The notes: generated by a model not told the origin, from the letters alone. 64,000 nucleotides of DNA from Patescibacteria group bacterium (GCA_022709865.1 JAKLIA010000001.1:210740-274739); one strand, 5' to 3'; shown: positions 2,442-52,076, counted from the stretch's first letter. Made by a program: numbers and translations.

Positions 2442-2443
2442 CC

Positions 2444-3796: not shown

Positions 3797-3829
3797 GCCG
3801 CAAAGATCCGATTTAAACAAAAATAAAAT

Positions 3830-5915: not shown

Positions 5916-5917
5916 AA

Positions 5918-7006: not shown

Positions 7007-7027
7007 TACATAGCATTTTTATTTAGC

Positions 7028-22073: not shown

Positions 22074-22077
22074 ATAT

Positions 22078-23592: not shown

Positions 23593-23606
23593 TCAAAGCC
23601 TCAGAC

Positions 23607-25211
23607 ATGAAGAAGAAAAAAAGAATATTATTAATAATGCCTTCTTTCTGGGATCCGATCTGCCCGCCACAGGGCATCGTTTCTTTGAGGTCATATATAG
23701 AGAAGCTGGGATACGAGGTTTTTATCAGAGACTTTAACACAGACCCTCGGCTGTTTGATCTGCAAAGAAAATATTTTGAGCTTGGCTTAAAATTATTTCC
23801 TCATTGGAAGTTCTTAAATATTTTTAGGAACGGTCCCAGGTATTTTGCCCGGCATCAATTAGCCTGGTTTTTTGGGCGGCAATTGGGCACAAAATATGAA
23901 AAACTAGTGGGGCTAATTTTGAATTTTGACGGCAAAAGCAAATGCACCAAAGGGATGATCAAGCGCTTTGATTCTATCGTTGCCGAAGCCTTTAAGCTAA
24001 CCGAAGCAAAAACAGCGGAATTAGTAGGCCAGATAAAACCCGACATAATCGGCTGCACCATGCTGGAGAGCACTTTCCCCACGGCGTTGGCTATTTTAAA
24101 AACAGCGAAAAAAAATAAACCAAAAATTAAAACTTTACTTGGCGGGCCGGGGCCATTAATGGGTGATAAGATAGAGCATGGAAATCTGCAAAGAATTTTG
24201 GATAAGTGCCCTTGGATTGATACGATTATTTGCGGAGAAGGGGAAATCTTGTTCGAATATTATCTGAAAAAATCTTTCGGCAATAAAAAGATTATAGGGA
24301 TAGAGGATTTGAAAAATATAAAAAAAGCGGCTAGCGTTATGGATCTGCTAGTTGATATTAACAAATTACCAGAATCGAATTTTGAAGGCTTAACGATAAA
24401 AAGATATCTTTGGCTTTCTAGCTTTACTTCTAGGGGTTGTCCGTTCAGATGCGCTTTTTGCTTTGAAAACTCTTTTTGGAAAAGATTTAGGATGAAGAAC
24501 ATTAAAAAAGTGTTGAAAGAATTCAATCATTTATCCGATTCGTACCAAAATAATAAGTTTTATTTGTCGGATTCTTTAGCTAATCCCATAATGAATGACC
24601 TAGCTTTTGGCTTAAAGAATGGCGGCACAAGGTATGAATACGATACATATATCCGAATAACCGATGATTGTTTGGATAATAAAATAGTGAAACGGTGGGC
24701 GGATAGCGGTTTGGCTAGAGCGAGAATCGGCGTTGAATCAACCTCTCCGCGCGTTTTAAAGTTAATGAATAAGAAGATAACTACAGAACAAATAGGAAAA
24801 AGTTTGAATAATTTTTCCCGGAATGGTATTTATACTTCAACTTTATGGATTGCCGGTTTTCCCGGGGAGACAAAGAAAAATTTTTTAGAGTCGGTCGCTT
24901 TTTTGAAAAAAAATTGCCAGAATATTTATCAAGCTGATATCTGGGAGTTTGTTTGTTCTCCAGAGGGATTTTCTATTGCGGAGGAAGGTATCAACCATCA
25001 GGCAAAACTAGCTTATCCTGAAGAATTAGGTAGTATTCTCCCTTTGCGATATTTTGAGCTAGAAGGCTACATTTCTCCGGCGGAACGTTTTGAAAGGATT
25101 AGTCTTTTTGAAAAAGCAAGAATAAGGGCTGGCATCCCAAATCCGTATTCGATCAGCGATTTGTTGCGGGCAAAAGACCGCTGGATTAAGCTTGGCCATA
25201 AACATAATTAA
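23607..25211 (+). CDS. B12-binding radical SAM protein (class B radical SAM), paralog 1
   Basis: N-terminal cobalamin-binding domain (IIGCTMLESTFPTALAIL...LLGGPGP) and a radical SAM CxxxCxxC motif (SRGCPFRCAFC). Nearly identical over about 900 nt to 40772-42385. Confidence 0.75.
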   Translation: MKKKKRILLIMPSFWDPICPPQGIVSLRSYIEKLGYEVFIRDFNTDPRLFDLQRKYFELGLKLFPHWKFLNIFRNGPRYFARHQLAWFFGRQLGTKYEKLVGLILNFDGKSKCTKGMIKRFDSIVAEAFKLTEAKTAELVGQIKPDIIGCTMLESTFPTALAILKTAKKNKPKIKTLLGGPGPLMGDKIEHGNLQRILDKCPWIDTIICGEGEILFEYYLKKSFGNKKIIGIEDLKNIKKAASVMDLLVDINKLPESNFEGLTIKRYLWLSSFTSRGCPFRCAFCFENSFWKRFRMKNIKKVLKEFNHLSDSYQNNKFYLSDSLANPIMNDLAFGLKNGGTRYEYDTYIRITDDCLDNKIVKRWADSGLARARIGVESTSPRVLKLMNKKITTEQIGKSLNNFSRNGIYTSTLWIAGFPGETKKNFLESVAFLKKNCQNIYQADIWEFVCSPEGFSIAEEGINHQAKLAYPEELGSILPLRYFELEGYISPAERFERISLFEKARIRAGIPNPYSISDLLRAKDRWIKLGHKHN

Positions 25212-25216
25212 ATATT

Positions 25217-25654
25217 ATGAAAATAGAAAAGATAAAAAAAGCGAGAAAAATTGAATTTGATAAAGTGGCTGTTGGTGACGAAGTCTTTTTTGAAAAGAAG
25301 ATTGGCAGAAAAGAAATGAAAAAATTCGAAGAACTAACGGGCAATTCAACCCCTTTGCATACCGACCTGAAATTTGCCAAGCAAAAAGGTTTTCGCGGGA
25401 TAGTGGTTTATGGGCTTTTGGCCGCAGCTTATTTTTCGACTCTTTTTGGCATGTTATTGCCCGGAGAAAAGTGTTTGTGTCTAAGCCATAATTTAATTTA
25501 TAAAAAGCCCCTAATTGAAGGAGAAACAATAAAAGTGATGGGGAGGGTTACCCATAAGATCAGCAGCGCCCAGATATTGATCATGAAAACAAGGATTTTT
25601 AATAAAAAAGGGATATTGATCATAGACGGAGAAGCAAAAGTAAGGTTTATTTAA
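25217..25654 (+). CDS. MaoC-like (R)-specific hydratase/dehydratase (hotdog fold)
   Basis: GNSTPLHTDLKFAKQKGFRGIVVYGLL matches the MaoC dehydratase signature. 145 aa. Confidence 0.7.
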   Translation: MKIEKIKKARKIEFDKVAVGDEVFFEKKIGRKEMKKFEELTGNSTPLHTDLKFAKQKGFRGIVVYGLLAAAYFSTLFGMLLPGEKCLCLSHNLIYKKPLIEGETIKVMGRVTHKISSAQILIMKTRIFNKKGILIIDGEAKVRFI

Positions 25655-25667
25655 TGATTTTATTTTT

Positions 25668-26729
25668 ATGAAAATAATCTGCGTAGTTGGCGCCAGGCCA
25701 AACTTTATAAAAATTGCATCGCTTGTAAAAGAAATAAAAAGGCACAAAGAAATAGATTGTGTCTTGGTCCATACGGGCCAGCATTACGACAATTTAATGT
25801 CGGATGTATTTTTTAGGGACCTGCAGATACCTAAGCCGGATATTTTTTTAGGAGTAAGATCTTGCGGCCAGATTGAGCAAATCGCTGAGATAATGACAGC
25901 TTTTGAAGGGGTTTGCCTGGAAGAAAAGCCGGATATGGTTTTGGTTGTTGGTGATGTTAATTCGACTTTAGCGGCGGCCTTGGCAGCCAATAGAAATGGC
26001 ATAAAGGTGGTGCATGTTGAAGCCGGTTTGAGATCTTTTGACCGGCAAATGCCGGAGGAAATAAACAGGATCATTGTTGATCAAATTGCCGATTATTTAT
26101 TCATAACCGAAGAGAGCGCCTATAGGAACTTGATAAAGGAAGGCATAAATAAAAATAAAATATTTTTTGTTGGCAATGTTATGATAGACGCTTTGAAGCA
26201 GTTTTTTAAAAAAGAAACCGGCATTGTTAAAAAAATGGGCTTAAAACCTAAGGATTATTGTTTGATCACAATGCATCGGCCATCAAACGTGGATAGCAAG
26301 GAGCGGCTAATTGAGATTTTTGATATTCTGGATTCTCTTAATGAAAAGATCGTTTGGCCGATTCATCCGCGAACCAAAAAGAATATAGAAAAGTTTAATT
26401 TAAGCGATCGCCTGAAAAAATATACCACTTTAGAGCCGCTGGGCTATTTGGATTTTATGTCTCTTTTAAAAAGATGCAAATTAACTTTAACTGATTCAGG
26501 CGGCATTCAAGAGGAGGCAACTTTTTTGGGAGTTCCTTGTTTAACCATGAGGGAAAATACAGAGAGGCCGATAACAATAACAAAAGGGACGAATTATTTG
26601 GTTGGTTCAAAAAAAGAAATAATAAAGGCTATTTATGCTATTGGCAAAAGGAAAAAATCGATTCCAAAATATTGGGACGGTAAAGCGTCAAAAAGGATTA
26701 TCGATATTTTGAAAAAAAATGAAAATTAG
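25668..26729 (+). CDS. wecB: UDP-N-acetylglucosamine 2-epimerase, non-hydrolysing (WecB/MnaA type)
   Basis: MKIICVVGARPNFIKIASL...HTGQHYD...HVEAGLRSFD is characteristic of the non-hydrolysing 2-epimerase. Confidence 0.85.
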   Translation: MKIICVVGARPNFIKIASLVKEIKRHKEIDCVLVHTGQHYDNLMSDVFFRDLQIPKPDIFLGVRSCGQIEQIAEIMTAFEGVCLEEKPDMVLVVGDVNSTLAAALAANRNGIKVVHVEAGLRSFDRQMPEEINRIIVDQIADYLFITEESAYRNLIKEGINKNKIFFVGNVMIDALKQFFKKETGIVKKMGLKPKDYCLITMHRPSNVDSKERLIEIFDILDSLNEKIVWPIHPRTKKNIEKFNLSDRLKKYTTLEPLGYLDFMSLLKRCKLTLTDSGGIQEEATFLGVPCLTMRENTERPITITKGTNYLVGSKKEIIKAIYAIGKRKKSIPKYWDGKASKRIIDILKKNEN

Positions 26730-27972
26730 AAATATTATTATAGGAACATACGATAAAATAGTCAGGCCGATATTTGATAAAGATCTGGCGGTTATTTTAA
26801 AATTAAAAAACAAGCAATATCCTTTTGAGGCAGAAACTGACGAGGCTCATTTGGTTCGTAGCTTAAAATGGCTAACCCTGGCTAATGAAAAAGTTGGCGG
26901 GCAAGGATTTCCTTCAAAGTTCTCAATTGTGGCAAAATATGGCTTGGGCCAGCCGTATCCGGAAGTGACCGGCTATACACTTTGCACCCTGCTGGCTATA
27001 TTAAGAAATAAGCCCTTGGCAGGATTTGATTATTCTATGATTGAAAAACTAATTAAAAACTCCTGTGATTTTTTAATGAAGATCCAATTTCCTGGCGGCG
27101 CTTTTACGGGCGGCAGCAAGGGAATGGCAAATTTTGGCCAGCCGAGCATCTTTAATACAGGCCAAATTGTTCTCGGTTTAGCCGATGTTTATGAAACGAT
27201 AACGGATTCACAGCAGGAAATCTTGAAAGAAATCAATCCGGAACTTATAAAAAAATCGCTTCTTAGGGCCAGCGAGTTTCTGATGGGAGAAATTGATAGC
27301 GACGGCTCATTTAAAATAGAGCATACTTTTTTAAAATCAAAAAGAGCTTATTATGCCAGAGCCGCTTACGGTCTTTTAAGGGCGGGAATAGTTTTAAAAC
27401 GAGAAGATTTTATTTTAGGATCAAAAAAGTTTTTTGATTATGTCTTAACTCTGCAAGAGGAAAGCGGTTGGATACGCAATTGGGGATTTGAAGACAAGTT
27501 CGCTGTCCTGCATACGATAGCTTATACTTTAAGAGGGTTATCAGAGGCTTATATCTATTTTAAAGATGAAAAATACGGCCAGGCAGTTAAAAAGGGCTTA
27601 GAGTTTTTATTAAGTTGTGGTAAAGATAATTTTTCTTATCCCGATCTTTTGCCGTCTCATTATGATAAAGATAAAAATATCGTTAATGATTTATGCTTGA
27701 CCGGTTTATCCCAGATGGCGATAGTCCTGAAAAAATATGATTCAGTGGTTAAAACAAAAGAATACGAACCTTTATTTGGCGCGATAATTGCGGCAACCAA
27801 AAGGTTTCAAAACAGGGGATTTAAAAATGAATTATTGAACGGGTTGATGCCGGCTTCTTGGCCGATAAATGGCCGTTATAAACCGTATAGTTTTATTGAG
27901 TGGGGAACAAAGTTTTTTATGGATTCAATTCTGTTATCAATGGGGCTAGACTCGCAACAAATCAAAGGATGA
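26719..27972 (+). CDS. Hypothetical protein with possible alpha/alpha-toroid (terpenoid cyclase / prenyltransferase / LanC-like) repeats
   Basis: Repeated Gly/aromatic-rich motifs (GGQGFPSKF, PGGAFTGG, SGWIRNWGFEDKF) spaced about 50-60 aa apart, as in QW/toroid repeats. This is fold-level inference only. Confidence 0.3.
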   Translation: MKIRNIIIGTYDKIVRPIFDKDLAVILKLKNKQYPFEAETDEAHLVRSLKWLTLANEKVGGQGFPSKFSIVAKYGLGQPYPEVTGYTLCTLLAILRNKPLAGFDYSMIEKLIKNSCDFLMKIQFPGGAFTGGSKGMANFGQPSIFNTGQIVLGLADVYETITDSQQEILKEINPELIKKSLLRASEFLMGEIDSDGSFKIEHTFLKSKRAYYARAAYGLLRAGIVLKREDFILGSKKFFDYVLTLQEESGWIRNWGFEDKFAVLHTIAYTLRGLSEAYIYFKDEKYGQAVKKGLEFLLSCGKDNFSYPDLLPSHYDKDKNIVNDLCLTGLSQMAIVLKKYDSVVKTKEYEPLFGAIIAATKRFQNRGFKNELLNGLMPASWPINGRYKPYSFIEWGTKFFMDSILLSMGLDSQQIKG

Positions 27973-27975
27973 TTT

Positions 27976-28356
27976 ATGAAAACAATAACTTTTAAAGATT
28001 TTAGTGTTGGTGCAGACATAGAGAATATTAAACGATTTAGGCGATTAAATAAAAAAACCGATAAGATTTTTTTTAAAAAAATACTGACCGATAAGGAATT
28101 GGCATATTGTTTCATTAGCCATGACCCAGCGCCTCATTTAGCGGGAAGGTTTTCTGCTAAGGAGGCAATTATTAAAGCCCTTGGTGGACTAGGAGAAAAC
28201 GGTTTAGCTTTTAATAAAATGGAGATTTTAAACAATAAAATCGGTGCACCGGAAGTTTTCTTTAAGGAAAAAAAGTTTAAAAAATATAGAATTAAAATAA
28301 CAATTTCCCATACCAAAGACCTGGCACTAGCCATGGCTATTGCCTTAAAGAAGTAA
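27976..28356 (+). CDS. acpS: Holo-[acyl-carrier-protein] synthase (4'-phosphopantetheinyl transferase, AcpS type)
   Basis: VGADIENIKRF...HLAGRFSAKEAIIKALG and the 126-aa size match AcpS. Confidence 0.75.
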   Translation: MKTITFKDFSVGADIENIKRFRRLNKKTDKIFFKKILTDKELAYCFISHDPAPHLAGRFSAKEAIIKALGGLGENGLAFNKMEILNNKIGAPEVFFKEKKFKKYRIKITISHTKDLALAMAIALKK

Positions 28357-28361
28357 TTTAT

Positions 28362-30176
28362 ATGAAAACAGCAAAAAAACAAGAAGAAAAGAAGCCGGCT
28401 TCTTTTATCGAATATCTTGATTTTTATAAAAAAAATCTTAGGGTTTTTGAAGGCGAAAAGAATGAGGGCGTTGAAAAAGAAGTCAGAATTGCTTTTTTAT
28501 CCAGCTTTACAACCAATGGCTTTAAAGAGGTTTTATCGGCTAAATGCCATCAACTTGGCTTGTCTCCAAAAGTTTTTATTGGCGGATATAACCAATATTC
28601 GCAAGAGATATATGGCCAGTCAGGCGAGTTGTACGCGTTTAACCCGCAACTAATTATTTTGTTTATTGATATTAGGGCGATTGCTGGCGAATATTATTTA
28701 TTGCCGTATAGCCGGACAGAAAAGGAAAGGCAGGTTTGGGTTGAGGAAAAGAAAGAGGAAATAATCGCTTTAATTAAAAAAATAAAAGAAAAAAGTTCGG
28801 CCAAGATAGTGTTCCATAATTTTGAAGTTCCTTTTGAAAGCCCTCTTAAGATATTGGAGGTGAAAGAAAAATTCGGCTGGCGTGAAGCAGTAGAAAAACT
28901 TAACGAGAAAATTAGGGAGAGCTTTAAGAAGGATCATCAAGTTTTTGTTTTTGATTATAATAATTTTATTTCAAAAATAGGCAAATCAAATATTTTTAAT
29001 TCAAAACTTTATTATTTGGGCGATATAAAGTTCAATTTGGAATATTTGCCGGAGCTTTGCGAGGAATATATGGGATACGTTAAGCCCTTAAAATCTTTGA
29101 CAAAAAAATGCTTGGTTCTGGACCTGGACAACACTCTTTGGGGAGGAATTATCGGCGAAGACGGGCTTAATGGGATAAAATTAGGGCCGACTCCAGAAGG
29201 CCGGCCGTTTTGGGAGTTTCAAAAATATATATTGTCGCTTCATAATCAAGGAGTTATTTTAGCGATAAATAGCAAAAACAACCCAGCCGACGCCTTGGAG
29301 GTGTTAAGAAAACATCCTTATTCTATTTTGAAAGAAGAACATTTTGCCTCTATCCAAATAGATTGGGATGATAAAGTCGCTAAGATGAAAAAGATTTGCC
29401 AAGAGATAAATATCGGCTTGGATAGCCTGGTTTTTATTGATGATGATAAAGCTAACAGAGAAATGGTCAAAGCTGCTTTGCCCGAAGTTTCGGTTGTGGA
29501 AATGCCAGAAGACCCAGCCGCCTATCTTAAAAAGCTGGAATCGATAACTGATTTTAACCGGCTTGAAATAACAGAAGAGGATAAAAAAAAGGGGAAAATG
29601 TATGGAGAAGAGAGAAAGCGGCTGGAGCTTCAAAAGGCGGCGTCTAATTTAGGCGAATATTTAAAAAGCTTGGAAATCAAAATAACGATAAAAAAAGCAG
29701 ATAAGTTTAATTTGCCGCGGATTGCCCAATTAATTAATAAAACCAATCAATTCAACACAACAACTATCCGTTATTCGGAAGAGGAAGTGGAAAAAATATC
29801 TAAAGATAAAAAATATTGGATTTTGTCGGTGGCGGCTGAAGACCGGTTTGGCGATAACGGAATAGTCGGAGTGGCTATAATTAAAAAGGAAGAGACGAAG
29901 ATATGGGAAATAACTTCTTTTTTATTGAGCTGTCGCGTTATTGGGAAGGAAATTGAAAGGGCAATCCTAGCTTTTATTATGAAAAATGCAAATAAAGCTC
30001 GGGCAAGTTTAGTTGCAGGCAATTTTGTTAAAACAGCTAAAAATGCGCCAGCGGCAGATTTTTTCAAAAAAAACGGGTTTAAACTCGTGGGAAGCGATAA
30101 GGGGCAGGAAAGATGGGAGCGCAAGGCAGATAGCGTTTTATTGCCGCCAAATTTTATTAAAATAAAAGAAAAATAA
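28362..30176 (+). CDS. FkbH-like / HAD-IIIC phosphatase-family protein with a C-terminal GNAT-like domain
   Basis: The central CLVLDLDNTLWGGIIGEDG is the hallmark HAD motif I of FkbH-like domains (glyceryl-ACP forming enzymes). The C-terminal about 150 aa look GNAT-like. About 240 aa at the N-terminus are unassigned. Confidence 0.6.
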   Translation: MKTAKKQEEKKPASFIEYLDFYKKNLRVFEGEKNEGVEKEVRIAFLSSFTTNGFKEVLSAKCHQLGLSPKVFIGGYNQYSQEIYGQSGELYAFNPQLIILFIDIRAIAGEYYLLPYSRTEKERQVWVEEKKEEIIALIKKIKEKSSAKIVFHNFEVPFESPLKILEVKEKFGWREAVEKLNEKIRESFKKDHQVFVFDYNNFISKIGKSNIFNSKLYYLGDIKFNLEYLPELCEEYMGYVKPLKSLTKKCLVLDLDNTLWGGIIGEDGLNGIKLGPTPEGRPFWEFQKYILSLHNQGVILAINSKNNPADALEVLRKHPYSILKEEHFASIQIDWDDKVAKMKKICQEINIGLDSLVFIDDDKANREMVKAALPEVSVVEMPEDPAAYLKKLESITDFNRLEITEEDKKKGKMYGEERKRLELQKAASNLGEYLKSLEIKITIKKADKFNLPRIAQLINKTNQFNTTTIRYSEEEVEKISKDKKYWILSVAAEDRFGDNGIVGVAIIKKEETKIWEITSFLLSCRVIGKEIERAILAFIMKNANKARASLVAGNFVKTAKNAPAADFFKKNGFKLVGSDKGQERWERKADSVLLPPNFIKIKEK

Positions 30177-30177
30177 T

Positions 30178-30411
30178 ATGGAATTAAAAAAAATATTCGC
30201 CAAAGTTATAGGCATTAATGAATCAGGTGTCTCTGGCAGTTTATCTAGAAAGAATACTGTGGAATGGGATTCTATTAACCACCTGCTTTTAGTGAGCGAG
30301 ATAGAAAAAGAATTGAAGATAACTATGACCATGAAAGAGGTGGAGGAAGTAAAAAATTATAAAGAGCTCGATTTGATAGTTAAGAGCCGCAGCCAAAAAA
30401 ATAAAAAATAA
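30178..30411 (+). CDS. Acyl carrier protein
   Basis: 77 aa, with an EWDSINHLLLVSEIE phosphopantetheine-attachment serine context (DS). The start is 2 nt after the FkbH-like stop. Confidence 0.7.
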   Translation: MELKKIFAKVIGINESGVSGSLSRKNTVEWDSINHLLLVSEIEKELKITMTMKEVEEVKNYKELDLIVKSRSQKNKK

Positions 30412-30414
30412 AAG

Positions 30415-31284
30415 ATGATCCTTTATTTGAACGAAAATAAAGCTATTTCTGGTGAAGATTTTTTAGGGGCTTTGCAGCAATTGGGCGTGCAGCAGGGAGA
30501 TGTTTTGTTCGTCCATTCGGATGTTTCGGTTTTTGGCAAATTGGCCACAGAGGGGAAAAACGAGTTGCTAGAAGCATTAGCAGGCGTTTTTAAAAAGGCT
30601 GTCGGGGAAAACGGCACGATAATTATGCCAACTTTTTCATATAGTTTTTATCATGGCAAAGTTTTTGATGTTGAAAAAACGCGGTCGGAAGTAGGTATTT
30701 TAACGGAATATTTCAGAAAACAAGAGGGAGTTATTCGGACGGCTCAACCCAATCACTCTGTGGCTATATTTGGAAAAAAGAAAAACGAGCTGGCAAAAGT
30801 GGGAATAGACTGCTTTGACGGCAACTCTATTTTTGGAAAAATGAGAGAGGCGGGCGGTAAAATAGTTATTTTTGGCGCCCCGTTCCTTTCCTGCACTTTT
30901 ATTCACTCCATAGAGCAGGCCCACGGAGTGCCTTATCGGTATCTAAAAACTTTTTATGGCACAATTATAAATAAAGGAGCTGCTAAAAAAGAGAGAAGCA
31001 CTTTTTATGTGCGCCGTTCTGAAAATAAGATAAAGACAGATCTTTCAAGGCTAGAAAGTTATTTGCTTGAAAATGGCTTTATGAAAGAAACAAAATTAGG
31101 TAATGGGAAAATTATGGTTGTGGATGCAAATACTTTGTTTAGGGAAGGCATGAAGATGCTGGATAAAGATATTAATTTTTTTGTTAGAATTATTCCCGTG
31201 AGCAAGGCAGCTGATATTATTTTTTATTTTAGGCGCTTCTTAGGAAATATAAAAATACAAGTAAAAAACTTTTTAATTAAATAA
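30415..31284 (+). CDS. AAC(3)-family (Antibiotic_NAT fold) N-acyltransferase
   Basis: GDVLFVHSDVSVFGKL...IIMPTFSYSF...HSIEQAHGVPYRY is the aminoglycoside 3-N-acetyltransferase family signature. Here it is embedded in a nonulosonic acid pathway. Confidence 0.6.
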   Translation: MILYLNENKAISGEDFLGALQQLGVQQGDVLFVHSDVSVFGKLATEGKNELLEALAGVFKKAVGENGTIIMPTFSYSFYHGKVFDVEKTRSEVGILTEYFRKQEGVIRTAQPNHSVAIFGKKKNELAKVGIDCFDGNSIFGKMREAGGKIVIFGAPFLSCTFIHSIEQAHGVPYRYLKTFYGTIINKGAAKKERSTFYVRRSENKIKTDLSRLESYLLENGFMKETKLGNGKIMVVDANTLFREGMKMLDKDINFFVRIIPVSKAADIIFYFRRFLGNIKIQVKNFLIK

Positions 31285-31288
31285 AAAT

Positions 31289-32329
31289 ATGAAAAACTTT
31301 ATAAAAATTGGCAAAAGAAAAATTGGGGCGGATTTTGCGCCGTTTGTTATTGCGGAAATTGGCATCAATCATAATGGCAGCATGGCTAAAGCAAAAAAAA
31401 TGATAGACGATGCTTATAAGGCTGGAGCTGAATGCATTAAGTTCCAATGCCATGTGGTTGAAGACGAAATGGTGCCAATAGCCAAAAAAATAATTCCCGG
31501 CCACGCCAAAGAATCTATCTGGGATATTATGAAAAAAGCAGCTTTCAACGAGGCTCAAGAAAGGGAATTAAAAAAATACACGGAAAAATTAGGAATGCTG
31601 TATTTGAGCACGCCTTTTTCCCGGGCTGGCGCTGATCGGTTGCAGTCTATGGGGGTTGAGGCTTTTAAAATTGGCTCGGGAGAGTGCAATAATTATCCTC
31701 TTATTAAGCATATTGCTAGATTCGGAAAGCCAATTATTTTGAGCACCGGCATGAATGATATTAAAGCAATCAGCCGAAGCGTTGGTATTCTGCGCCAGCA
31801 CAAGGTTCCTTTTGCGTTGCTTCACTGCACCTCAATGTATCCGGTGCCTTATAATAAAGTTCGCTTAGGGGCTATTTCTCAGTTGCAGAAAGAGTTTTCT
31901 GATGCGGTAGTTGGGTTAAGTGACCATTCTTTGGGCAATTACACCTGCTATGCAGCAGTGGCGCTGGGAGCTTCGATTCTAGAAAAACATTTTACCTCGT
32001 CTCATAAATGGGAAGGGCCGGATATTGCTTTGTCCATTGATCCTGCTCAGCTTAAAGATTTAGTTTCTGGCTCCAAAGCCGTCTACGAAGCCTTAGGCGG
32101 GCAGAAGGATATTCTAAAAGAAGAAAAGGGGATTATAGATTTTGCTTATGCTTGTGTGATCACAACAAAAGACATAAAAAAAGGAGAATCTTTTACTAAC
32201 AAAAATATTTGGGTTAAGCGGCCGGGGACAGGAGAAATAAAAGCTGTTGAATATGATAGTGTCTTAGGCCGCAAGGCTAGCCAAGATATAAAAAAAGATG
32301 AACAATTAAAATATAAAGAAATAATTTAG
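31289..32329 (+). CDS. neuB: Nonulosonic acid synthase (NeuB/PseI/LegI family: N-acetylneuraminate / pseudaminate / legionaminate synthase)
   Basis: IIAEIGINHNGSMAKAKKMIDDAYKAGAECIKFQ plus a C-terminal SAF domain. Confidence 0.85.
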   Translation: MKNFIKIGKRKIGADFAPFVIAEIGINHNGSMAKAKKMIDDAYKAGAECIKFQCHVVEDEMVPIAKKIIPGHAKESIWDIMKKAAFNEAQERELKKYTEKLGMLYLSTPFSRAGADRLQSMGVEAFKIGSGECNNYPLIKHIARFGKPIILSTGMNDIKAISRSVGILRQHKVPFALLHCTSMYPVPYNKVRLGAISQLQKEFSDAVVGLSDHSLGNYTCYAAVALGASILEKHFTSSHKWEGPDIALSIDPAQLKDLVSGSKAVYEALGGQKDILKEEKGIIDFAYACVITTKDIKKGESFTNKNIWVKRPGTGEIKAVEYDSVLGRKASQDIKKDEQLKYKEII

Positions 32330-32332
32330 AGC

Positions 32333-33493
32333 ATGAAAAACAACAAAAAACGTAAAATCTTATTTATTACCGAGCGGCGGACCGATTACAGCCGCTTGAA
32401 ACCAATAATGGAAGCGGTGCAGAAAAGCGAAAAATTAGAATTGCAGCTTTTGCTTACCGGCATGCATCTTTTGAAAAGCTTTGGCGAAACAAAAAAAACC
32501 GTTGAGGCGGACGGTTTTAAAATTGATGCAGTTTTGCCAATTTTTAAAGAAAACGACAAAGATGACGCTTCATCGATGGTTAAGGGTTTGGGCAGGGCCT
32601 TGTTGGGTATGCCGGATATTTTTAAAAAAATGGAGCCGGATATTCTATTTGCCGGTTTTGACATCGGGGCTAATTTTGCGGCAGCGATCACGGCGATGCA
32701 TTTAAATATCCATGTTGCGCATTTGGAAGGCGGAGAGCGTTCAGGAACGATTGATGAAGTTATTCGCCACGCCATAACAAAGTTTTCCCATATACACTTT
32801 GCTTGTTCAGCCCAAAGCGCTAAGCGTATTATCAAATTAGGCGAGGATAAGCAACATGTTTTTAATGTTGGCGTGCCAAGCATCGAAACGATCAGGAATA
32901 TTAAATACGAAGATAAAATTGATATTTGCCGGAAATATAGATTAGACCCAAGCAAAAAAATAATAATTTTTTTGCAGCATCCCGTTACGACTGAAATTAA
33001 TGAGGTTCAATCCCAAATTAAAAAAAGCGTAGAGGCAATCAAGGCAGTGAATAAAAAACACGAGACGCAATCAATAGCGATCTATTCAAATAATGATGCC
33101 GGCGGCAGAAAAATAGTTTCTTTTTTGAACCAATCAGGGTTAAAAGTTTTTTCCCATATTCTTCACGAAGATTTTTTGCGCTTAATGAAAGTTGCCGATG
33201 TTTTGGTCGGCAATTCTAGCTCGGCTATTCATGAGGCGCCGTCTTTCGGTTTGCCGGCGGTTAATATCGGCAGTCGCCAGCAATTCCGCGAGCGGGGCTG
33301 CAATATAATCGATGCAGGCAATAATCAGCCTCAAATTGTGGTGGCGATAGAAAAGGCGTTATTTGATGAACTGTTCCTTAAAAAGGTAAGGCGCTGCCAG
33401 AATCCCTACTATCAGCCGGATTCAGTTAAAAAAATAATTAAGATCTTAGAAACAATTAAATTGCCGTCAATTCAAAAAGTGATAAAATATTAA
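32333..33493 (+). CDS. neuC: UDP-N-acetylglucosamine 2-epimerase, hydrolysing (NeuC/LegG type)
   Basis: HLEGGERSGTIDEVIRHAITK is the hydrolysing-epimerase signature. Confidence 0.75.
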   Translation: MKNNKKRKILFITERRTDYSRLKPIMEAVQKSEKLELQLLLTGMHLLKSFGETKKTVEADGFKIDAVLPIFKENDKDDASSMVKGLGRALLGMPDIFKKMEPDILFAGFDIGANFAAAITAMHLNIHVAHLEGGERSGTIDEVIRHAITKFSHIHFACSAQSAKRIIKLGEDKQHVFNVGVPSIETIRNIKYEDKIDICRKYRLDPSKKIIIFLQHPVTTEINEVQSQIKKSVEAIKAVNKKHETQSIAIYSNNDAGGRKIVSFLNQSGLKVFSHILHEDFLRLMKVADVLVGNSSSAIHEAPSFGLPAVNIGSRQQFRERGCNIIDAGNNQPQIVVAIEKALFDELFLKKVRRCQNPYYQPDSVKKIIKILETIKLPSIQKVIKY

Positions 33494-33497
33494 AATT

Positions 33498-34364
33498 ATG
33501 CGTATTTTATTAATTGGGGGCAGAGGTTTTATTGGTGAATATCTATTGGAAAGTTTAAAAAGCCAGCCTAATTGCGAGGTGGTGGTAGCTTGTCTTAAGG
33601 CGCCAAGAATTAAAAAAGACAAGAATATAACTTTTCAAGAAATCAATTTAGAGAAAAATAAAGAAGGATTAACCCAATTAATGAAGAGTGCAGAAACAGC
33701 AGTTGTCTTAACTAGGCCAAACAAGCAGATAATAAATAATTTGATCCTTGCCGGGCGGGCTTCAAAATCTTTAAAGAAAATAGTTTATCTTTCTAGCCTT
33801 TTGGTTTATCCTAGCGTTAATAGGCCGCAAAATGAAAATAGCCGTTTGGCACCCCTAACTGATTACGAAAAAGACAAATACGAAGAAGAAAAAATACTCG
33901 CTTTTTTTGCTAAAAAGAAAAATATAAAGTTTTGCATCGCGAGAATTGCTAATGTTTACGGTGATATTAAAAACAGCGGGATGATAAACTTGATCTCCTT
34001 GGCTTTATTAAAAAAACAGCCTTTAAATATAAATGGCGACGGTAGCCAGACAAGAGATTACATTTTTGTTGAAGATGTAGCCAATCTTTTGTCATTTTTA
34101 GTTTTATTTAAACAAAAAAAACAGCAAGAAGTTTTTAATATTTGCACCGGCTTGGGTTCAACTATTAAAGAAATAGTAAGAGCAGCAGAAAAAATAGCGA
34201 AGCGAAAAGCCAATTTAATTTTTAGTCAGCCGATTTTGGAAAAACAAACAATTGTTGGCAATAATAAAAAGATTTTAAGTCTTTCTGGATATAAGTTAAA
34301 ATACGATATAGGGAAGGGGCTTAGAAAAACTTTAAATAATTATAAGAAACATTTAATTAAATAA
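33498..34364 (+). CDS. NAD-dependent epimerase/dehydratase (SDR)
   Basis: MRILLIGGRGFIGEYL Rossmann motif. 288 aa. Confidence 0.65.
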   Translation: MRILLIGGRGFIGEYLLESLKSQPNCEVVVACLKAPRIKKDKNITFQEINLEKNKEGLTQLMKSAETAVVLTRPNKQIINNLILAGRASKSLKKIVYLSSLLVYPSVNRPQNENSRLAPLTDYEKDKYEEEKILAFFAKKKNIKFCIARIANVYGDIKNSGMINLISLALLKKQPLNINGDGSQTRDYIFVEDVANLLSFLVLFKQKKQQEVFNICTGLGSTIKEIVRAAEKIAKRKANLIFSQPILEKQTIVGNNKKILSLSGYKLKYDIGKGLRKTLNNYKKHLIK

Positions 34365-34373
34365 ATAAAAAAT

Positions 34374-35423
34374 ATGTCAAACAAAGAACTGTTAAAAGAG
34401 TTTAAGGATAAAAAAATATTAGTTACCGGAGGAACCGGCTCGATCGGATCGGTTATAATAGAAGAGCTTTTAAAATATCAGCCGCGGCAGATACGCGTTT
34501 TTAGCCGGGACGAGACCAAGCAATTCGAACTTTCACACAGGCTTGGCCAAGGCGCTCCTGTTACTTATCTTATCGGGGATATTAGGGATAAAGACAGGCT
34601 CAATTTAGCTATGGAAGGCATAGATATAGTTTTCCATGCGGCTGCTTTAAAGCATGTTTTAGCCTGCGAGCAAAATCCTTTTGAAGCAGTTAAAACTAAT
34701 GTTAATGGCACACAGAATGTTATTGATTGCGCTTTTGCCAATCAGGTTGATAAAGTTGTTTCTATATCAACAGATAAAGCCACGAACCCGACCAATATTA
34801 TGGGTTGCACGAAGCTGTTGGCTGAAAAATTGCTATTAACCACGTTTTTTTACAAAGGCAAGAAAAAAACAAAGTTTTGCTGTGTGCGCTTCGGCAATGT
34901 TCTTGGAGCAAGGGGTTCGGTGATACCATTATTTGCCAGCCAAATTAAAAAGGGAAAGCAGGTGACTGTTACTGATCCAGATATGACCAGGTTTGTGATG
35001 TCTATTCCTCAGGCTGTTAATTTGGTGTTATGCGCCGCTTCTTTAGTGCAAGACAGGGAAATATTTATTTTAAAAATGCCGGTGGCAACTACCGGTGATA
35101 TTGCCCAAGCAATGATCGAGCTTGGCCAAGAAAAGTTAAAAAATAAAGATAAAATTGATATAAAAATTGTTGGCAAGAAAGACGGAGAGCGATTGCACGA
35201 AAAGCTTTTGACCATAGAAGAATCTGTTCTGGCCATGGAAACAAAGGATATGTTTATTGTGCTGCCCGATATAAAATTAGCGCCACATCTTCCAAACTAT
35301 ACTCCCGTAAAATATCCGGGCGCCAGCAAGGCTAAGGTTATGGAATATAATACGCAGATGCAAGAAAAATTAAGTGTCAAGGAAATAAAGCATTTGCTAG
35401 AAGAAGTTAAGCCGTTTAAATAA
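34374..35423 (+). CDS. UDP-GlcNAc 4,6-dehydratase (PseB/LegB/CapD-like, Polysacc_synt_2)
   Basis: ILVTGGTGSIGS...FHAAALKHV...STDKATNPTNIMGCTKLLAEK is the canonical CapD/PseB signature. Confidence 0.8.
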   Translation: MSNKELLKEFKDKKILVTGGTGSIGSVIIEELLKYQPRQIRVFSRDETKQFELSHRLGQGAPVTYLIGDIRDKDRLNLAMEGIDIVFHAAALKHVLACEQNPFEAVKTNVNGTQNVIDCAFANQVDKVVSISTDKATNPTNIMGCTKLLAEKLLLTTFFYKGKKKTKFCCVRFGNVLGARGSVIPLFASQIKKGKQVTVTDPDMTRFVMSIPQAVNLVLCAASLVQDREIFILKMPVATTGDIAQAMIELGQEKLKNKDKIDIKIVGKKDGERLHEKLLTIEESVLAMETKDMFIVLPDIKLAPHLPNYTPVKYPGASKAKVMEYNTQMQEKLSVKEIKHLLEEVKPFK

Positions 35424-35433
35424 AATAATTTTT

Positions 35434-36114
35434 ATGAAGATTTTAGCAATAATTCCAGCCAGAGGCGGCTCAAAAGGCATTCCGCATAAGAATGTATATC
35501 CTTTAGCGGGCAAGCCCCTTTTGGCATGGACTATAGAGGCGGCAAAATCGGTAAGGCTTATAGATAAAATTGTGGTATCATCGGACGACGATAAGATTTT
35601 AAGCGTGGCAAAAGAATACGGCGCCGAAGCGATTAAAAGGCCGGATGAGATTTCTGGTGATGATTCCCCATTCAGCTCTTTAATTTTTCATGCGCTAGAT
35701 TTTTTAAAAGCAGAGGGAGAATATATGCCGGACATTCTAATTTATCTTCAACCAACTTCTCCTCTTAGGAAAGCAGGGGATATTGATCAGGCGTTAGCCT
35801 TAATGGACGAAGAAGCAGACGGCGTTATAAGCGCCTACGAAGTTGATAATAAATCATTAAAATCATTTATTGTTAATGATGATGGTTTTATGGAGGGGGC
35901 CGTTAATAGTAGCTTCCCCTTTATGAATCGCCAGGATTTGCCAAAGATCTATATGCCTAACGGAGCGATCTATATAATCAAAACAAAATCTTTTTTGAAA
36001 ACCGGAAAATTATTTTCTAAAAAAACAAAGCTTTTTTTAATGGATGAAAGTAAAAGCTTAGATATAGATTCTGTAGAAGACATAAAGAAGGCGGAAGATA
36101 TATTAAGAAAATAA
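35434..36114 (+). CDS. neuA: Acylneuraminate (nonulosonate) cytidylyltransferase
   Basis: ILAIIPARGGSKGIPHKNV...GKPLLAWTIE is the CMP-NeuAc synthetase family signature. Confidence 0.85.
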   Translation: MKILAIIPARGGSKGIPHKNVYPLAGKPLLAWTIEAAKSVRLIDKIVVSSDDDKILSVAKEYGAEAIKRPDEISGDDSPFSSLIFHALDFLKAEGEYMPDILIYLQPTSPLRKAGDIDQALALMDEEADGVISAYEVDNKSLKSFIVNDDGFMEGAVNSSFPFMNRQDLPKIYMPNGAIYIIKTKSFLKTGKLFSKKTKLFLMDESKSLDIDSVEDIKKAEDILRK

Positions 36115-36135
36115 AGTAAAAATATATACAAAAAT

Positions 36136-36402
36136 ATGGAAATTGCTAAGGCAGAGAAAATTTTAAAAGCTTTAGCTAACCGTCGCCGGCTTAAAATATT
36201 AAAGTATATTAAAGATGGCAAAAGGGCATCGGTAACCGAGTTAGCGGGATATCTTAAAATTTCTTTTAAGGCAACTTCTAAGCATTTAGCAATTTTGAAA
36301 AATAACGATTTAGTTGAGTCAGAACAAATAGGTTTATCAATTTTTTACGGCTTATCTTCATCGTTACCCAAAATAGTAGAGGAAACGCTTTCTTTTATTT
36401 AA
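36136..36402 (+). CDS. ArsR/SmtB-family transcriptional regulator
   Basis: 88-aa winged HTH (LANRRRLKILKYI...VTELAGYLKISFKATSKHLAILKNNDLV). Confidence 0.7.
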   Translation: MEIAKAEKILKALANRRRLKILKYIKDGKRASVTELAGYLKISFKATSKHLAILKNNDLVESEQIGLSIFYGLSSSLPKIVEETLSFI

Positions 36403-36445: not shown

Positions 36446-36581
36446 ACAGTCTTATCCACAGGGAAAGGTTTGCTTAGTTCTAATTAGGTTTATAATATAA
36501 GTAAGGTTTTGATATAACTCCAGCCCTAGAAGTAGGGGCGGGGTTATTTTTTTAAAAATAGTAAAAAATAAAACTAAAAAT

Positions 36582-37106
36582 ATGAAGAAAAAAATATTGG
36601 GATTATTTGTGCTGTTCGTTGTCATCGCCGCTTTTTTTGGCGGCTTCTATTTCTATAAAATCTGGTGGCCGGAAAAGCAGCTTAAAATTGATAATGGCTT
36701 GGCAGAGTCTAAGTTTCCCTGGCGGAATTATACCGATGCGGAGCTGGAGGCAATGTATCCGCAAATCAAAAACGCTGCTATCCCAACGCGCACTACCCCG
36801 GAACAAACTTATGCTAGTTTCCGCGAGGCATTAAGGACTAATAATTTAGAATTGGCGGTAGCACAGCTATATGAAGAGGGAAAAAGATATGAAGAAAATT
36901 CACAATTTTTAGAAGATGAATATGCAGCTAGTAGATTTAAAGAGCTTTATGGTCATTATTCAGAAAAGATAATGAGGGCAAACATGTATGAAGCAATAGC
37001 TCAGTATGAATATAGCTATTTTTCAAAAAAATATAGCCAAGATTTAATAGGCACTATTGATTTTACAAAAAATACATCCGGTGATTGGAAGATGGATAGT
37101 CTATAG
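36582..37106 (+). CDS. Membrane-anchored hypothetical protein
   Basis: N-terminal transmembrane helix (ILGLFVLFVVIAAFFGGFYFY), then a 150-aa soluble domain. It sits directly upstream of the giant secreted protein. Confidence 0.4.
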   Translation: MKKKILGLFVLFVVIAAFFGGFYFYKIWWPEKQLKIDNGLAESKFPWRNYTDAELEAMYPQIKNAAIPTRTTPEQTYASFREALRTNNLELAVAQLYEEGKRYEENSQFLEDEYAASRFKELYGHYSEKIMRANMYEAIAQYEYSYFSKKYSQDLIGTIDFTKNTSGDWKMDSL

Positions 37107-50272: not shown

Positions 50273-50860
50273 ATGGTTCCTAGCAGGGTTTTTTTTACGA
50301 AAGGCGTTGGCGTGCATAAGGAGTATTTAACTTCATTTGAGCTGGCATTACGAGATGCGGGAATCGCTCCTTTTAATATTGTGACAGTTTCCAGTATTTA
50401 TCCGCCGGGCTGCAAAAAGATATCTAAAGAAGACGGATTAAAAATCCTAAGGCCCGGACAAATCTTATATTGCGTGATGAGCCGCAACGCTACTAACGAA
50501 CCAAACCGCCTAATCGCTGCTTCGGTTGGTTGCGCTGTGCCGGCAGATGAGGCGCAATACGGTTATCTTTCCGAACATCATTCTTTTGGTGAAACCGACC
50601 AGAAAGCCGGGGATTATGCCGAAGACCTGGCAGCTTCGATGTTGGCCTCGACCTTGGGCATTGAGTTTGATCCGGCTAGCGCTTGGGATGAGCGGGAAAA
50701 TCTTTATAAAATGAGCGGCAAAATAGTTAAGACAACTAATATTACCCAATCGGCGATTGGCAATAAAGATGGCCTGTGGACGACAGTGCTAGCGTCAGCG
50801 GTTTTCATTTTGCCAAGTTATTTGGAGCAAAAAGAAACTAATGGTTCAAGCCAAAGTTAA
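50273..50860 (+). CDS. pdaD: Pyruvoyl-dependent arginine decarboxylase
   Basis: [15 protein letters not shown]...[14 protein letters not shown], with the Ser-Ser self-cleavage site. Confidence 0.85.
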
Positions 50861-50897
50861 AAAATAAAGACAGCTGGAGGGGCTTTGATTTTGTTCT

Positions 50898-52067: not shown

Positions 52068-52076
52068 AAATATTTT

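Follow-up and report, generated by a model that had tools for sequence, protein, structure and literature searches.

We analysed a 64,000-nucleotide stretch of a Patescibacteria group genome (JAKLIA010000001.1, 210740-274739; referred to here as the window, with all coordinates counted from its first letter) that carries five genes for the synthesis of a CMP-activated nonulosonic acid at 31289-36114 on the plus strand. A pathway of the sialic acid/legionaminic acid (Neu/Leg) lineage that acts on a 6-deoxy substrate is well supported. The product we favour, tentatively and at somewhat less than even confidence, is a CMP-5-acylamido-3,5,9-trideoxy-nonulosonate with a hydroxyl at C7, which would be made through a 4,6-dehydratase and a predicted reductase of the short-chain dehydrogenase/reductase (SDR) type, here called SDR288. 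Public annotations of metagenome-assembled genomes (MAGs) already name these genes, so that their mere presence is no novelty; the new part is a recognisable variant module together with its sequence marker, a substitution in the synthase NeuB. A search of a literature library found no paper on nonulosonate biosynthesis in Patescibacteria.

The preliminary description of the window had guessed an origin in the candidate phyla radiation (CPR), and the window proteins are indeed deposited as MAG proteins of Candidatus Portnoybacteria bacterium, with exact-sequence matches for SecA (HRY52579.1), MurB, SecD, DegT and a 504-aa protein. Patescibacteria were the sole source of named relatives for NeuB (67-82% identity) and SDR288. 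All five open reading frames (ORFs) of the described set, encoding NeuB, NeuC, SDR288, the dehydratase (DH) and NeuA, were found contiguous and co-directional with gaps of 3-10 nt, and the assignment of a CMP-nonulosonate set to a CPR genome is borne out. These genes form the 3' end of a 16-gene operon (20280-36402, intergenic gaps of -11 to +21 nt) with the order ABC exporter, 504-aa candidate transferase, B12-radical SAM enzyme, MaoC, WecB, a 417-aa protein (P417), AcpS-type phosphopantetheinyl transferase (PPTase), FkbH, 77-aa carrier protein, AAC(3)-like protein, NeuB, NeuC, SDR288, DH, NeuA and an ArsR-type regulator. The first 36 kb of the window constitute a glycan island with many glycosyltransferases and methyltransferases. 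Unlike SecA, MurB, SecD, DegT and the 504-aa protein, which have NCBI nr accessions (HRY…) in the protein collection, the entries there from NCBI for NeuB, NeuC, NeuA, the dehydratase, FkbH, the AAC(3)-like protein and P417 bear neither an nr accession nor a name. It may be that the deposited MAG annotation has no protein records for the nonulosonate genes.

The synthase (31289-32329, +; Pfam PF03102 NeuB and PF08666 SAF) scored 388.4 bits on the NeuB_NnaB model TIGR03569, just under the cutoff of 399.65, and 252.7 bits on the PseI model TIGR03586, below the cutoff of 340.25. It is a genuine member of the NeuB clade, as it scored 407 bits with Neisseria meningitidis NeuB (nmNeuB; 54% identity) against 162 with SpsE (36% identity) and 154 with Campylobacter jejuni PseI; the closeness to SpsE or to KDO8P/DAHP-like synthases, which the preliminary description had named as the case against its proposal, was not found. 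In the alignment, the nmNeuB residues E25, K53, Q55, T110, K129, Y186, S213, H215, H236, D247, F288 and R314 are all identical in the window protein, and the listed metal-, phosphoenolpyruvate (PEP)- and N-acetyl-binding residues are common to the two enzymes. The motif corresponding to KIxSFE, in which phenylalanine occurs in pseudaminic acid (Pse) enzymes and glycine in Neu and Leg enzymes (PMC7371886), reads KIGSGE in the window and thus has the Neu/Leg state. The region 70-85, which determines specificity towards C4-C6 of the substrate (PMC7371886), is retained in the window as a Neu-type loop.

Three differences between the window NeuB and nmNeuB were observed, namely N74H, Y80W and N184S. 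Asn74 touches the C6 hydroxyl of N-acetylmannosamine (ManNAc) and is fully conserved in N-acetylneuraminic acid (Neu5Ac) synthases while being absent from other sialic acid synthases (PMC11339185). In the window this position is occupied by a histidine (His72 in its own numbering), so that the Asn74 hallmark of Neu5Ac synthases is missing. The substitution points to a 6-deoxy substrate and is compatible with either a hydroxyl or an acetamido group at C4. Y80W and N184S were rejected as diagnostic marks because both are present in loci with a plain NeuB-NeuC-NeuA arrangement, leaving position 74 as the only informative one. Among the 120 closest NeuB homologues, 98 have histidine and 22 have asparagine at this position.

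A total of 97 loci (numbered with the prefix L) were fetched and searched with the window proteins, 80 of which were supplied by an alignment-based metagenome scan. Position 74 was found to be the top specificity-determining position, with 17 His-type and 69 Asn-type sequences. Contingency counts were taken over the loci in which 4.5 kb or more of sequence follow NeuB, comprising 14 His-type and 36 Asn-type loci. SDR288 or DH occurs within 5 kb of NeuB in all 14 His-type loci and in 4 of the 36 Asn-type loci, and both genes occur together within this distance in 9/14 and 0/36 respectively. DegT is not enriched in the His-type loci, where it was found anywhere in the locus in four cases (4/14; Asn-type, 10/36). 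SDR288 directly follows NeuC in 11 of the 14 His-type loci and is absent from the Asn-type loci L090, L091 and L092 of the same clade. A prediction test in the close CPR clade held, in that the Asn-type L091 and L092 consist of a plain NeuB-NeuC-NeuA set whereas the His-type L093 and L095 show the order NeuB-NeuC-SDR-DH. Of the others, the Asn-type L090 has a dehydratase but no SDR288, beside a Pse-like set of its own, and the His-type L094 has DH only. A neighbour-joining tree built without column 74 requires at least seven changes between asparagine and histidine, with a nested Asn subclade that lacks SDR288 and a separate His lineage (L021) that has DH. The repeated changes, the nested loss and the independent His lineage indicate that the association is not a single inherited accident. 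The identity of NeuC (at least 55% in SDR-bearing loci) was also tried as a functional marker and rejected, since the NeuC of the Asn-type L090 is 62% identical and NeuC identity therefore tracks lineage.

A second, divergent NeuB/NeuC pair, with a shortened 70-85 loop and with scores under the cutoffs of NeuB as well as PseI, was seen in L005 (16605-20566), L010 (16594-18789) and L094 (14728-17704). In L005 the pair is joined by a CBS-domain protein and by another weak BFO_1060-like transferase. The genomes of these three loci may make two different nonulosonates.

The dehydratase (34374-35423, +; PF02719, 351 bits) is a soluble UDP-N-acetylglucosamine (UDP-GlcNAc) 4,6-dehydratase with the signature STDKA...NIMGCTK (TDK/Mx3K). 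The signature TDK...Mx3K belongs to the C5-retaining enzymes PglF and WbpM, whereas TDK...Yx3K belongs to the inverting PseB and Pen (PMC8987622, Table 1). DH carries the TDKxnMx3K signature of the PglF/WbpM type, and it scored 325 bits on the PseB equivalog, below the cutoff of 407.75. The preliminary description had called this gene CapD/PseB-type; methionine stands in place of the tyrosine of the PseB signature. Among its relatives in the Protein Data Bank (PDB), the scores were 291 bits for Pen (6bwc), 249 for FnlA, 245 for CapE, 235 for PseB and 181 for PglF. An (M/L)x3K signature was found in every dehydratase linked to SDR288 or NeuC, including that of the window (STDKATNPTNIMGCTK). Yx3K was found in all of the second dehydratases that adjoin a DegT gene (L093, L095 and L062) and in the bona fide PseB of Campylobacter hepaticus (L096), as well as in the first dehydratase of L097, which has no DegT in view. 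Since the DegT-paired dehydratases of L093 and L095 are of the Yx3K type, the DegT modules in these loci can be regarded as separate Pse-type pathways. The inverting enzymes CapE and FnlA also carry methionine at the signature position, for which reason retention of the C5 configuration by DH is only likely. An identity of 46% to PseB is compatible with retention in Bacillus cereus Pdeg (PMC4514872).

SDR288 (33498-34364, +; generic extended SDR match) is a compact extended SDR of 288 aa and a predicted NAD(P)H-dependent 4-ketoreductase. Its orthologues form about 66 clusters, of which every named one is from Patescibacteria, and the next matches, generic GalE-like proteins, follow after a sharp drop in score from 134 to 100 bits, so the family appears to be restricted to the CPR. 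The GxxGxxG motif, Ser99 and Tyr123-x3-Lys127 are invariant in the family and the acid/base pair of dehydratases is absent. SDR288 and most members of the family also have no acidic residue after beta2, where GalE-type epimerases use one to anchor NAD+. In the orthologue of L015 (12206-13084) a phenylalanine stands in place of the catalytic tyrosine present in all others (…SFAKEK vs …DYEKDK). The preliminary description had counted this gene as an extra SDR epimerase; an SDR it is, but it can hardly be called extra, being the gene most tightly linked to His-type NeuB across the CPR loci.

The assignment of SDR288 as a 4-ketoreductase is inferred from two considerations. The dehydratase yields a 4-keto product that must be either reduced or aminated, and the only conserved candidate for this task is an SDR; in addition, there is a precedent in B. 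cereus, where the adjacent Pdeg and Preq convert UDP-GlcNAc to UDP-D-N-acetylquinovosamine (UDP-D-QuiNAc) with NADPH and Preq was once annotated as an epimerase (PMC4514872). The window resembles this system in having an adjacent soluble PF02719-type dehydratase and an extended SDR of about 300 aa with the annotation ‘epimerase’. It differs in that the pair lies between neuC and neuA and its product is proposed to serve NeuC and NeuB instead of being a glycosyl donor. The likeness of SDR288 to Preq lies in synteny and motifs (S...YxxxK and no acidic residue after beta2), the fold search being non-discriminating.

NeuC (32333-33493, +) is a hydrolysing NDP-N-acetylhexosamine (NDP-HexNAc) 2-epimerase of the NeuC/LegG type, scoring 374.4 bits on TIGR03568 (NeuC_NnaA; cutoff 235.9) and 95.3 bits on the WecB model; its substrate is a prediction from this family. 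The best solved relatives are the epimerase domain of human GNE (214 bits) and Acinetobacter baumannii LegG (196 bits). NeuA (35434-36114, +; PF02348, 81 bits) is a CMP-nonulosonate synthetase without an esterase domain, as its best solved relatives are the CMP-Neu5Ac synthetases of Vibrio cholerae (6ifd, 170 bits) and N. meningitidis (1eyr, 129 bits), with KdsB at 32 bits. On the PseF equivalog it scored 151 bits, below the cutoff of 205.7.

In the proposed route, DH together with SDR288, through reduction of C4 with NAD(P)H, would convert the substrate to a UDP-6-deoxy-HexNAc of the QuiNAc type, mirroring Pdeg and Preq. NeuC would remove UDP and epimerise C2 to give 6-deoxy-ManNAc, which NeuB, with histidine in place of the asparagine that binds the C6 hydroxyl, would condense with PEP to a 5-acetamido-3,5,9-trideoxy-nonulosonate. 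NeuA would then form the CMP sugar, and the candidate transferase at 22078-23592 and the ABC exporter would place and export it. For this route, the stereochemistry is a prediction, and so are the compounds on which NeuC and NeuB would act.

The alternative that survives best is a legionaminic-type di-N-acyl sugar, which we consider possible but doubtful. Here an unlinked aminotransferase or a moonlighting DegT would aminate C4, the AAC(3)-like enzyme would add a glycerate-derived acyl group delivered by FkbH, the carrier protein and MaoC, and NeuC, NeuB (His) and NeuA would produce CMP-Leg5Ac7(acyl), with some other role for SDR288. The UDP-linked legionaminic pathway (PglF/PglE/PglD and LegG/LegI/LegF; Legionella pneumophila, A. 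baumannii) shares with the window the TDK/Mx3K dehydratase, a NeuC-like 2-epimerase, a NeuB-like synthase without the asparagine for the C6 hydroxyl and a NeuA-like synthetase, and N74H would suit any 6-deoxy substrate. It differs in its aminotransferase and left-handed-beta-helix N-acetyltransferase, which the operon and most related loci lack and in place of which an SDR is found, and in the 70-85 loop, which in the window is of the Neu type. No legionaminic-pathway 4-aminotransferase (PglE/LegC) or N-acetyltransferase (PglD/LegH) was found within the operon (20280-36402), and a Pfam scan of the window ORFs with a length of 100 aa or more turned up no aminotransferase besides DegT. DegT was not in view in 10 of the 14 His-type loci, and the most tightly linked gene, SDR288, would be left without a role.

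The preliminary description had taken the DegT gene and the AAC(3)-like gene, together with the five core genes, to be enough for a di-N-acyl nonulosonate. Both genes exist, but the use of DegT as a nonulosonate aminotransferase is contradicted by its overlap with Gmd and its likeness to perosamine synthases, and the sufficiency of the set is unsupported by what is visible, as the 16-gene operon contains no aminotransferase and DegT is of the perosamine type. The DegT ORF (4806-5915) lies 26 kb upstream of the nonulosonate genes and overlaps the upstream Gmd gene by 17 nt. Gmd (TIGR01472, 456 bits; cutoff 415) and DegT form a GDP-perosamine module (3830-5915, +) outside the core pathway. Among solved relatives of DegT the GDP-perosamine synthases 3bn1 and 3dr4 are on top with 291-294 bits, followed by PglE with 176 and PseC with 137 bits, and its closeness to the Per enzymes together with its coupling to a GDP-mannose 4,6-dehydratase predicts GDP-perosamine synthase activity. 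The dehydratase of the nonulosonate operon, by comparison, is of the UDP-GlcNAc type. In favour of the legionaminic route, the highest-scoring profile model for DegT is the LegC family, with 328 bits and a cutoff of 420. In the surrounding region (1356-8476) the gene after the Gmd-DegT pair encodes a GT2-GtrA polyprenyl-phosphate glycosyltransferase, three PMT_2 (ArnT-like GT-C) genes lie on the flanks, and there is no adjoining N-acyltransferase. This region looks like an ArnC/ArnT-style system that would place perosamine on a surface acceptor. P417 (26719-27972, +; weak partial Pec_lyase match) was considered as a hidden aminotransferase and rejected. It sits between WecB and the PPTase and has repeated GGxF/W motifs, no PDB relative of it was found, and its AlphaFold2 (AF2) model is all-helical at low confidence (pLDDT 53), so that it is predicted to have no pyridoxal-phosphate fold; it is probably an alpha/alpha toroid.

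A further argument for the legionaminic-type sugar is the tight translational packing of the acyl cassette against neuB. The AAC(3)-like protein (30415-31284, +; PF02522, 141 bits) is a predicted AAC(3)-fold N-acyltransferase and not a resistance enzyme, as its membership is in the Pfam fold family only and its best resistance equivalog score was 77.5 against a cutoff of 270 (cutoffs range from 270 to 675). Its relatives at 45-55% identity include many fusions with MaoC, one with a PP-binding domain and one with a HAD domain, which argues that MaoC, FkbH, the acyl carrier protein (ACP) and the acyltransferase form one unit. The MaoC-type dehydratase (25217-25654, +; PF01575) is tied to the AAC(3)-like protein by these fusions, that of L097 included. 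FkbH (28362-30176, +) is a glyceryl-loading enzyme of the FkbH family with HAD-IIIC and FkbH domains (TIGR01686, 312.4 bits, cutoff 146.65; PF21211), the HAD motif DLDNTLW, and as partners a marginal carrier-like ORF and the AcpS-type 4'-phosphopantetheinyl transferase (27976-28356, +; PF01648; TIGR00556, 86 bits, cutoff 45). The ACP candidate (30178-30411, +; 77 aa) fills the gap between FkbH and the AAC(3)-like gene and contains a ‘WDSI’ serine motif. Its PF00550 score of 20.3 bits is marginal against the cutoff of 20.8, and the ORF is called as a gene in L001-L004. The order FkbH-ACP-AAC(3) is repeated in L097. The probable role of the cassette is to provide the amine of a sugar with a glycerate-derived acyl group.

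Relatives of the cassette were observed in several nonulosonate loci. L096 (C. hepaticus) has the order PseB-PseC-DUF4910 (Cj1295-like)-AAC(3)-AMP ligase-formyltransferase-ACP, L097 has FkbH-ACP-MaoC::AAC(3)-DUF4910...NeuA-PseG-like...DH-NeuB, and L064 combines a sugar N-formyltransferase, AAC(3) with DUF4910 and a PseI-like synthase. Tannerella forsythia carries Pse5Am7Gra, an N-glyceroyl nonulosonate (PMC5420450), and in Campylobacter the di-O-methylglyceroyl form of Pse depends on Cj1295 (PMC3068675), so N-acyl groups of this kind on nonulosonates are known. The Campylobacter Cj1295-Cj1299 system and T. forsythia Pse5Am7Gra resemble the window in the AAC(3)-fold acyltransferase and dedicated ACP within a nonulosonate locus and in the documented glyceroyl-type N-acyl groups. 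The window differs by its FkbH, MaoC and PPTase, by the absence of a DUF4910 partner of the AAC(3)-like gene and of adjoining PseB and PseC, and by a core sugar that is not Pse. In three mutually unrelated nonulosonate loci, L096 (8697-10777), L097 (4465-7050) and L064 (696-3329), the AAC(3)-like gene adjoins or is fused to the aminopeptidase-like DUF4910/DUF2172 (Cj1295-like) gene. Such a pair of deacylase and acyltransferase would explain the need for Cj1295 in di-O-methylglyceroyl Pse, and the glyceroyl-type N-acyl decorations of Campylobacter and Tannerella may find their explanation in the FkbH/ACP/MaoC/AAC(3)-like cassette that recurs in such loci.

Candidate acceptors for the acyl group are GDP-perosamine from the same island and a 4-amino nonulosonate precursor that an unlinked aminotransferase would make. 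GDP-perosamine is the only amine source visible in the window and, like the product of PseC, is an NDP-4-amino-4,6-dideoxyhexose. Polysaccharide deacetylase genes adjoin NeuB/NeuC/DH or NeuA in L090 (13217-17398) and L094 (610-1557 and 7309-8253), those of L090 being accompanied by a PPTase, an AMP ligase and a small carrier protein. They hint at an exchange of N-acyl groups by deacetylation and re-acylation as another route to an amine acceptor.

A second alternative, which we consider improbable, is that two pathways are interleaved, with NeuC, NeuB and NeuA making ordinary CMP-Neu5Ac while DH and SDR288 make a separate UDP-6-deoxy-HexNAc donor of the QuiNAc or N-acetylfucosamine (FucNAc) type for another residue of the same glycan. 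CMP-Neu5Ac could be made by NeuC, NeuB and NeuA alone; NeuB shares 54% identity with a proven Neu5Ac synthase and retains almost its whole active site, and NeuA is closest to CMP-Neu5Ac synthetases. Pairs like Pdeg and Preq yield UDP-QuiNAc as an end product in Bacillus (PMC4514872), and the dehydratase is not always adjacent (e.g. L006 and L012). With the CMP-Neu5Ac pathway of N. meningitidis and Escherichia coli K1 the window shares the hydrolysing 2-epimerase, the PEP-dependent SAF-domain synthase and the cytidylyltransferase. It differs in the replacement of Asn74 by histidine, in a TIGR03569 score just under the cutoff, and in the 4,6-dehydratase and SDR inserted between neuC and neuA, which co-vary with the histidine. 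The asparagine is thus replaced specifically in dehydratase- or SDR-bearing loci although it is fully conserved in Neu5Ac synthases, and the position of SDR288 directly after NeuC in most His-type loci, with its absence from the Asn-type loci of the same clade, also argues for a single pathway.

A pair like Pen and Pal, in which DH would release UDP-6-deoxy-GlcNAc-5,6-ene and SDR288, like Bacillus thuringiensis Pal, would isomerise it to a 4-keto-6-deoxy sugar for a pseudaminic-like or amino-sugar route, is suggested by Pen being the best solved relative of DH, but it is very improbable, since Pen has Yx3K where DH has Mx3K (on which difference the analogy was set aside as the leading model), SDR288 shares only 24% identity with Pal and scores higher with two 4-epimerases, the 4-keto product would still need the absent aminotransferase, and the synthase, the 2-epimerase and the glycine of KIGSGE are of the Neu/Leg type and not of the PseI/PseG type. 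Pseudaminic acid itself is excluded by this glycine, by the missed PseI and PseB cutoffs and by the Mx3K signature of the dehydratase. What little remains of our confidence goes to any other reading.

Several observations weigh against the favoured 7-hydroxy product. The association of His74 with SDR288 or DH, at a Fisher p of 3e-9, is uncorrected for phylogeny. The nearest solved relatives of SDR288 in both sequence and fold are 4-epimerases and Pal; its AF2 model (pLDDT 95) matches a mix of 4-epimerases, Pal and the Rmd reductase, with Rmd ranking 10th-11th, so the reductase activity is not established by the fold. A histidine at position 74 is still able to form a hydrogen bond, and Leg and Pse synthases also lack Asn74. 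Only in L006 is an Mx3K dehydratase directly joined by DegT and a hexapeptide acetyltransferase, a His-type NeuB lying 9 kb away; this arrangement is compatible with the legionaminic route. The view is one of 64 kb, and an unlinked aminotransferase may be present elsewhere in the genome. Finally, the cassette relatives that adjoin neuB sit in di-amino (Pse-type) loci, implying a free amine that the 7-hydroxy product does not have; the acceptor of the cassette set against a hydroxyl at C7 is the main tension.

The remaining genes of the operon comprise an exporter, a candidate transferase, a radical SAM enzyme, a second epimerase and a regulator. The ABC exporter (20280-22073, +; PF00664 membrane and PF00005 ATPase domains) is a probable flippase for a lipid-linked glycan, and its orthologues (46-57% identity) adjoin NeuA or radical SAM genes in L005, L006, L010, L093 and L095. 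The 504-aa protein (22078-23592, +) shows a weak C-terminal match to the BFO_1060 family, whose members are T. forsythia transferases for Pse and Leg derivatives (PMC5420450). Its score of 39.4 bits (profile positions 219-328) is far under the cutoff of 200. Orthologues (44-45% identity) come after the dehydratase in L005 and L010, and through this synteny and the weak resemblance in sequence the protein is a candidate nonulosonate transferase only. The window protein has DAP, with alanine for the histidine of the HP motif, where the orthologues of L005, L010, L012 and L093 have (D/E)HP. AP is also found in two distant relatives (L077 and L079), and the relatives at greater distance, found in L093, L095 and L006, belong to PF05159 Capsule_synth (KpsC/KpsS-like).

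The B12-binding radical SAM enzyme (23607-25211, +; PF04055 and PF02310) is methyltransferase-like. Genes of this kind are again found next to the ABC exporter or NeuB in L006, L093 and L095 and suggest that the glycan or its acyl group is C-methylated. Three paralogues of this enzyme type occur in the window, at 40-570 (cut by the window edge), 23607-25211 and 40772-42385. WecB (25668-26729, +; TIGR00236, 335.5 bits, cutoff 210.15) is a non-hydrolysing UDP-GlcNAc 2-epimerase. The last operon gene (36136-36402, +) encodes a small ArsR/SmtB-type helix-turn-helix protein (PF01022; NF033788, 65 bits, cutoff 55), and terminator-like hairpins lie 3' of it at 36523-36539 and 36625-36644. A scan of the window for promoters and terminators gave counts near the shuffled expectation and only these hairpins were used; a tRNA scan of the window found none.

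Directly downstream of the operon is a gene for a 1172-aa protein (37178-40696) with an N-terminal hydrophobic segment, a long Ser/Thr/Pro-rich linker (…PSPSPTATPSSSGSSSSSSTSSSSDTS…) and LTD and PQQ-like beta-propeller domains, which is a plausible O-glycosylation target for the island glycan. Just past the glycan island, a three-gene 2-oxoacid:ferredoxin oxidoreductase (POR_N, TPP_enzyme_C and POR gamma with 4Fe-4S) was found at 42489-45047, followed at 45498-46817 on the opposite strand by a Bac_transf priming phosphoglycosyltransferase. A polyamine trio at 50273-52931 consists of a pyruvoyl-dependent arginine decarboxylase, a deoxyhypusine-synthase-family (homospermidine-synthase-like) enzyme and an agmatinase/arginase-family enzyme.

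In sister CPR loci, HisF/WbuZ, HisH and a true WbuX N-acetyl-sugar amidotransferase (388 bits, cutoff 203) were observed beside NeuA/NeuB (L006, 5616-8279; L095, 2346-5063; L090, 1-2555). These modules predict an acetamidino (5Am) form of the sugar, as in the trideoxy nonulosonate of Fusobacterium. The 5-acetimidoylamino-3,5,9-trideoxy-non-2-ulosonic acid (trideoxy fusaminic acid) of Fusobacterium nucleatum, found together with 6-deoxy-L-N-acetylaltrosamine (6-deoxy-L-AltNAc), is the only reported natural 3,5,9-trideoxy nonulosonate (reference cited in PMC7371886). It shares with the proposed sugar the 7-hydroxy and 9-deoxy features, and with the sister CPR loci the acetamidino chemistry that their WbuX/HisH/HisF modules would provide. 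It differs in its L-gluco configuration and presumably Pse-like (inverting) origin, the CPR enzymes being of the Neu/Leg type.

More broadly, we propose with limited confidence that many Parcubacteria-type CPR bacteria, the Portnoybacteria source of the window among them, make a 5-acylamido-3,5,9-trideoxy-nonulosonic acid of the D-glycero-D-galacto type (9-deoxy-Neu5Ac), a previously undescribed sialic acid analogue, by means of a CPR-restricted 4-ketoreductase and a NeuB that descends from Neu5Ac synthases and was retuned by the change from asparagine to histidine at the site for the C6 hydroxyl. Accessory cassettes would diversify this sugar, with a glycerate-derived acyl group in the window and acetamidino or methyl groups in sister loci.

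CPR bacteria are ultra-small and mostly uncultured episymbionts, and to our knowledge almost nothing is known of their surface chemistry and its part in host contact. Our results suggest that a nonulosonate module is widespread in Parcubacteria-type lineages, and that it is a recognisable variant distinct from ordinary sialic, legionaminic or pseudaminic acid synthesis, marked by a His-type NeuB, a lineage-restricted SDR and a dehydratase with the PglF signature. The predicted derivative with 1,2-diamino-4,5-methylenedioxybenzene (DMB), with [M+H]+ of about 410, would be searchable in environmental glycomics data. If the 7-hydroxy-9-deoxy structure is true, Asn or His at nmNeuB position 74 would be a single-residue sequence marker for the use of 6-deoxy substrates, and the sugar would be a new member of the nonulosonate family.

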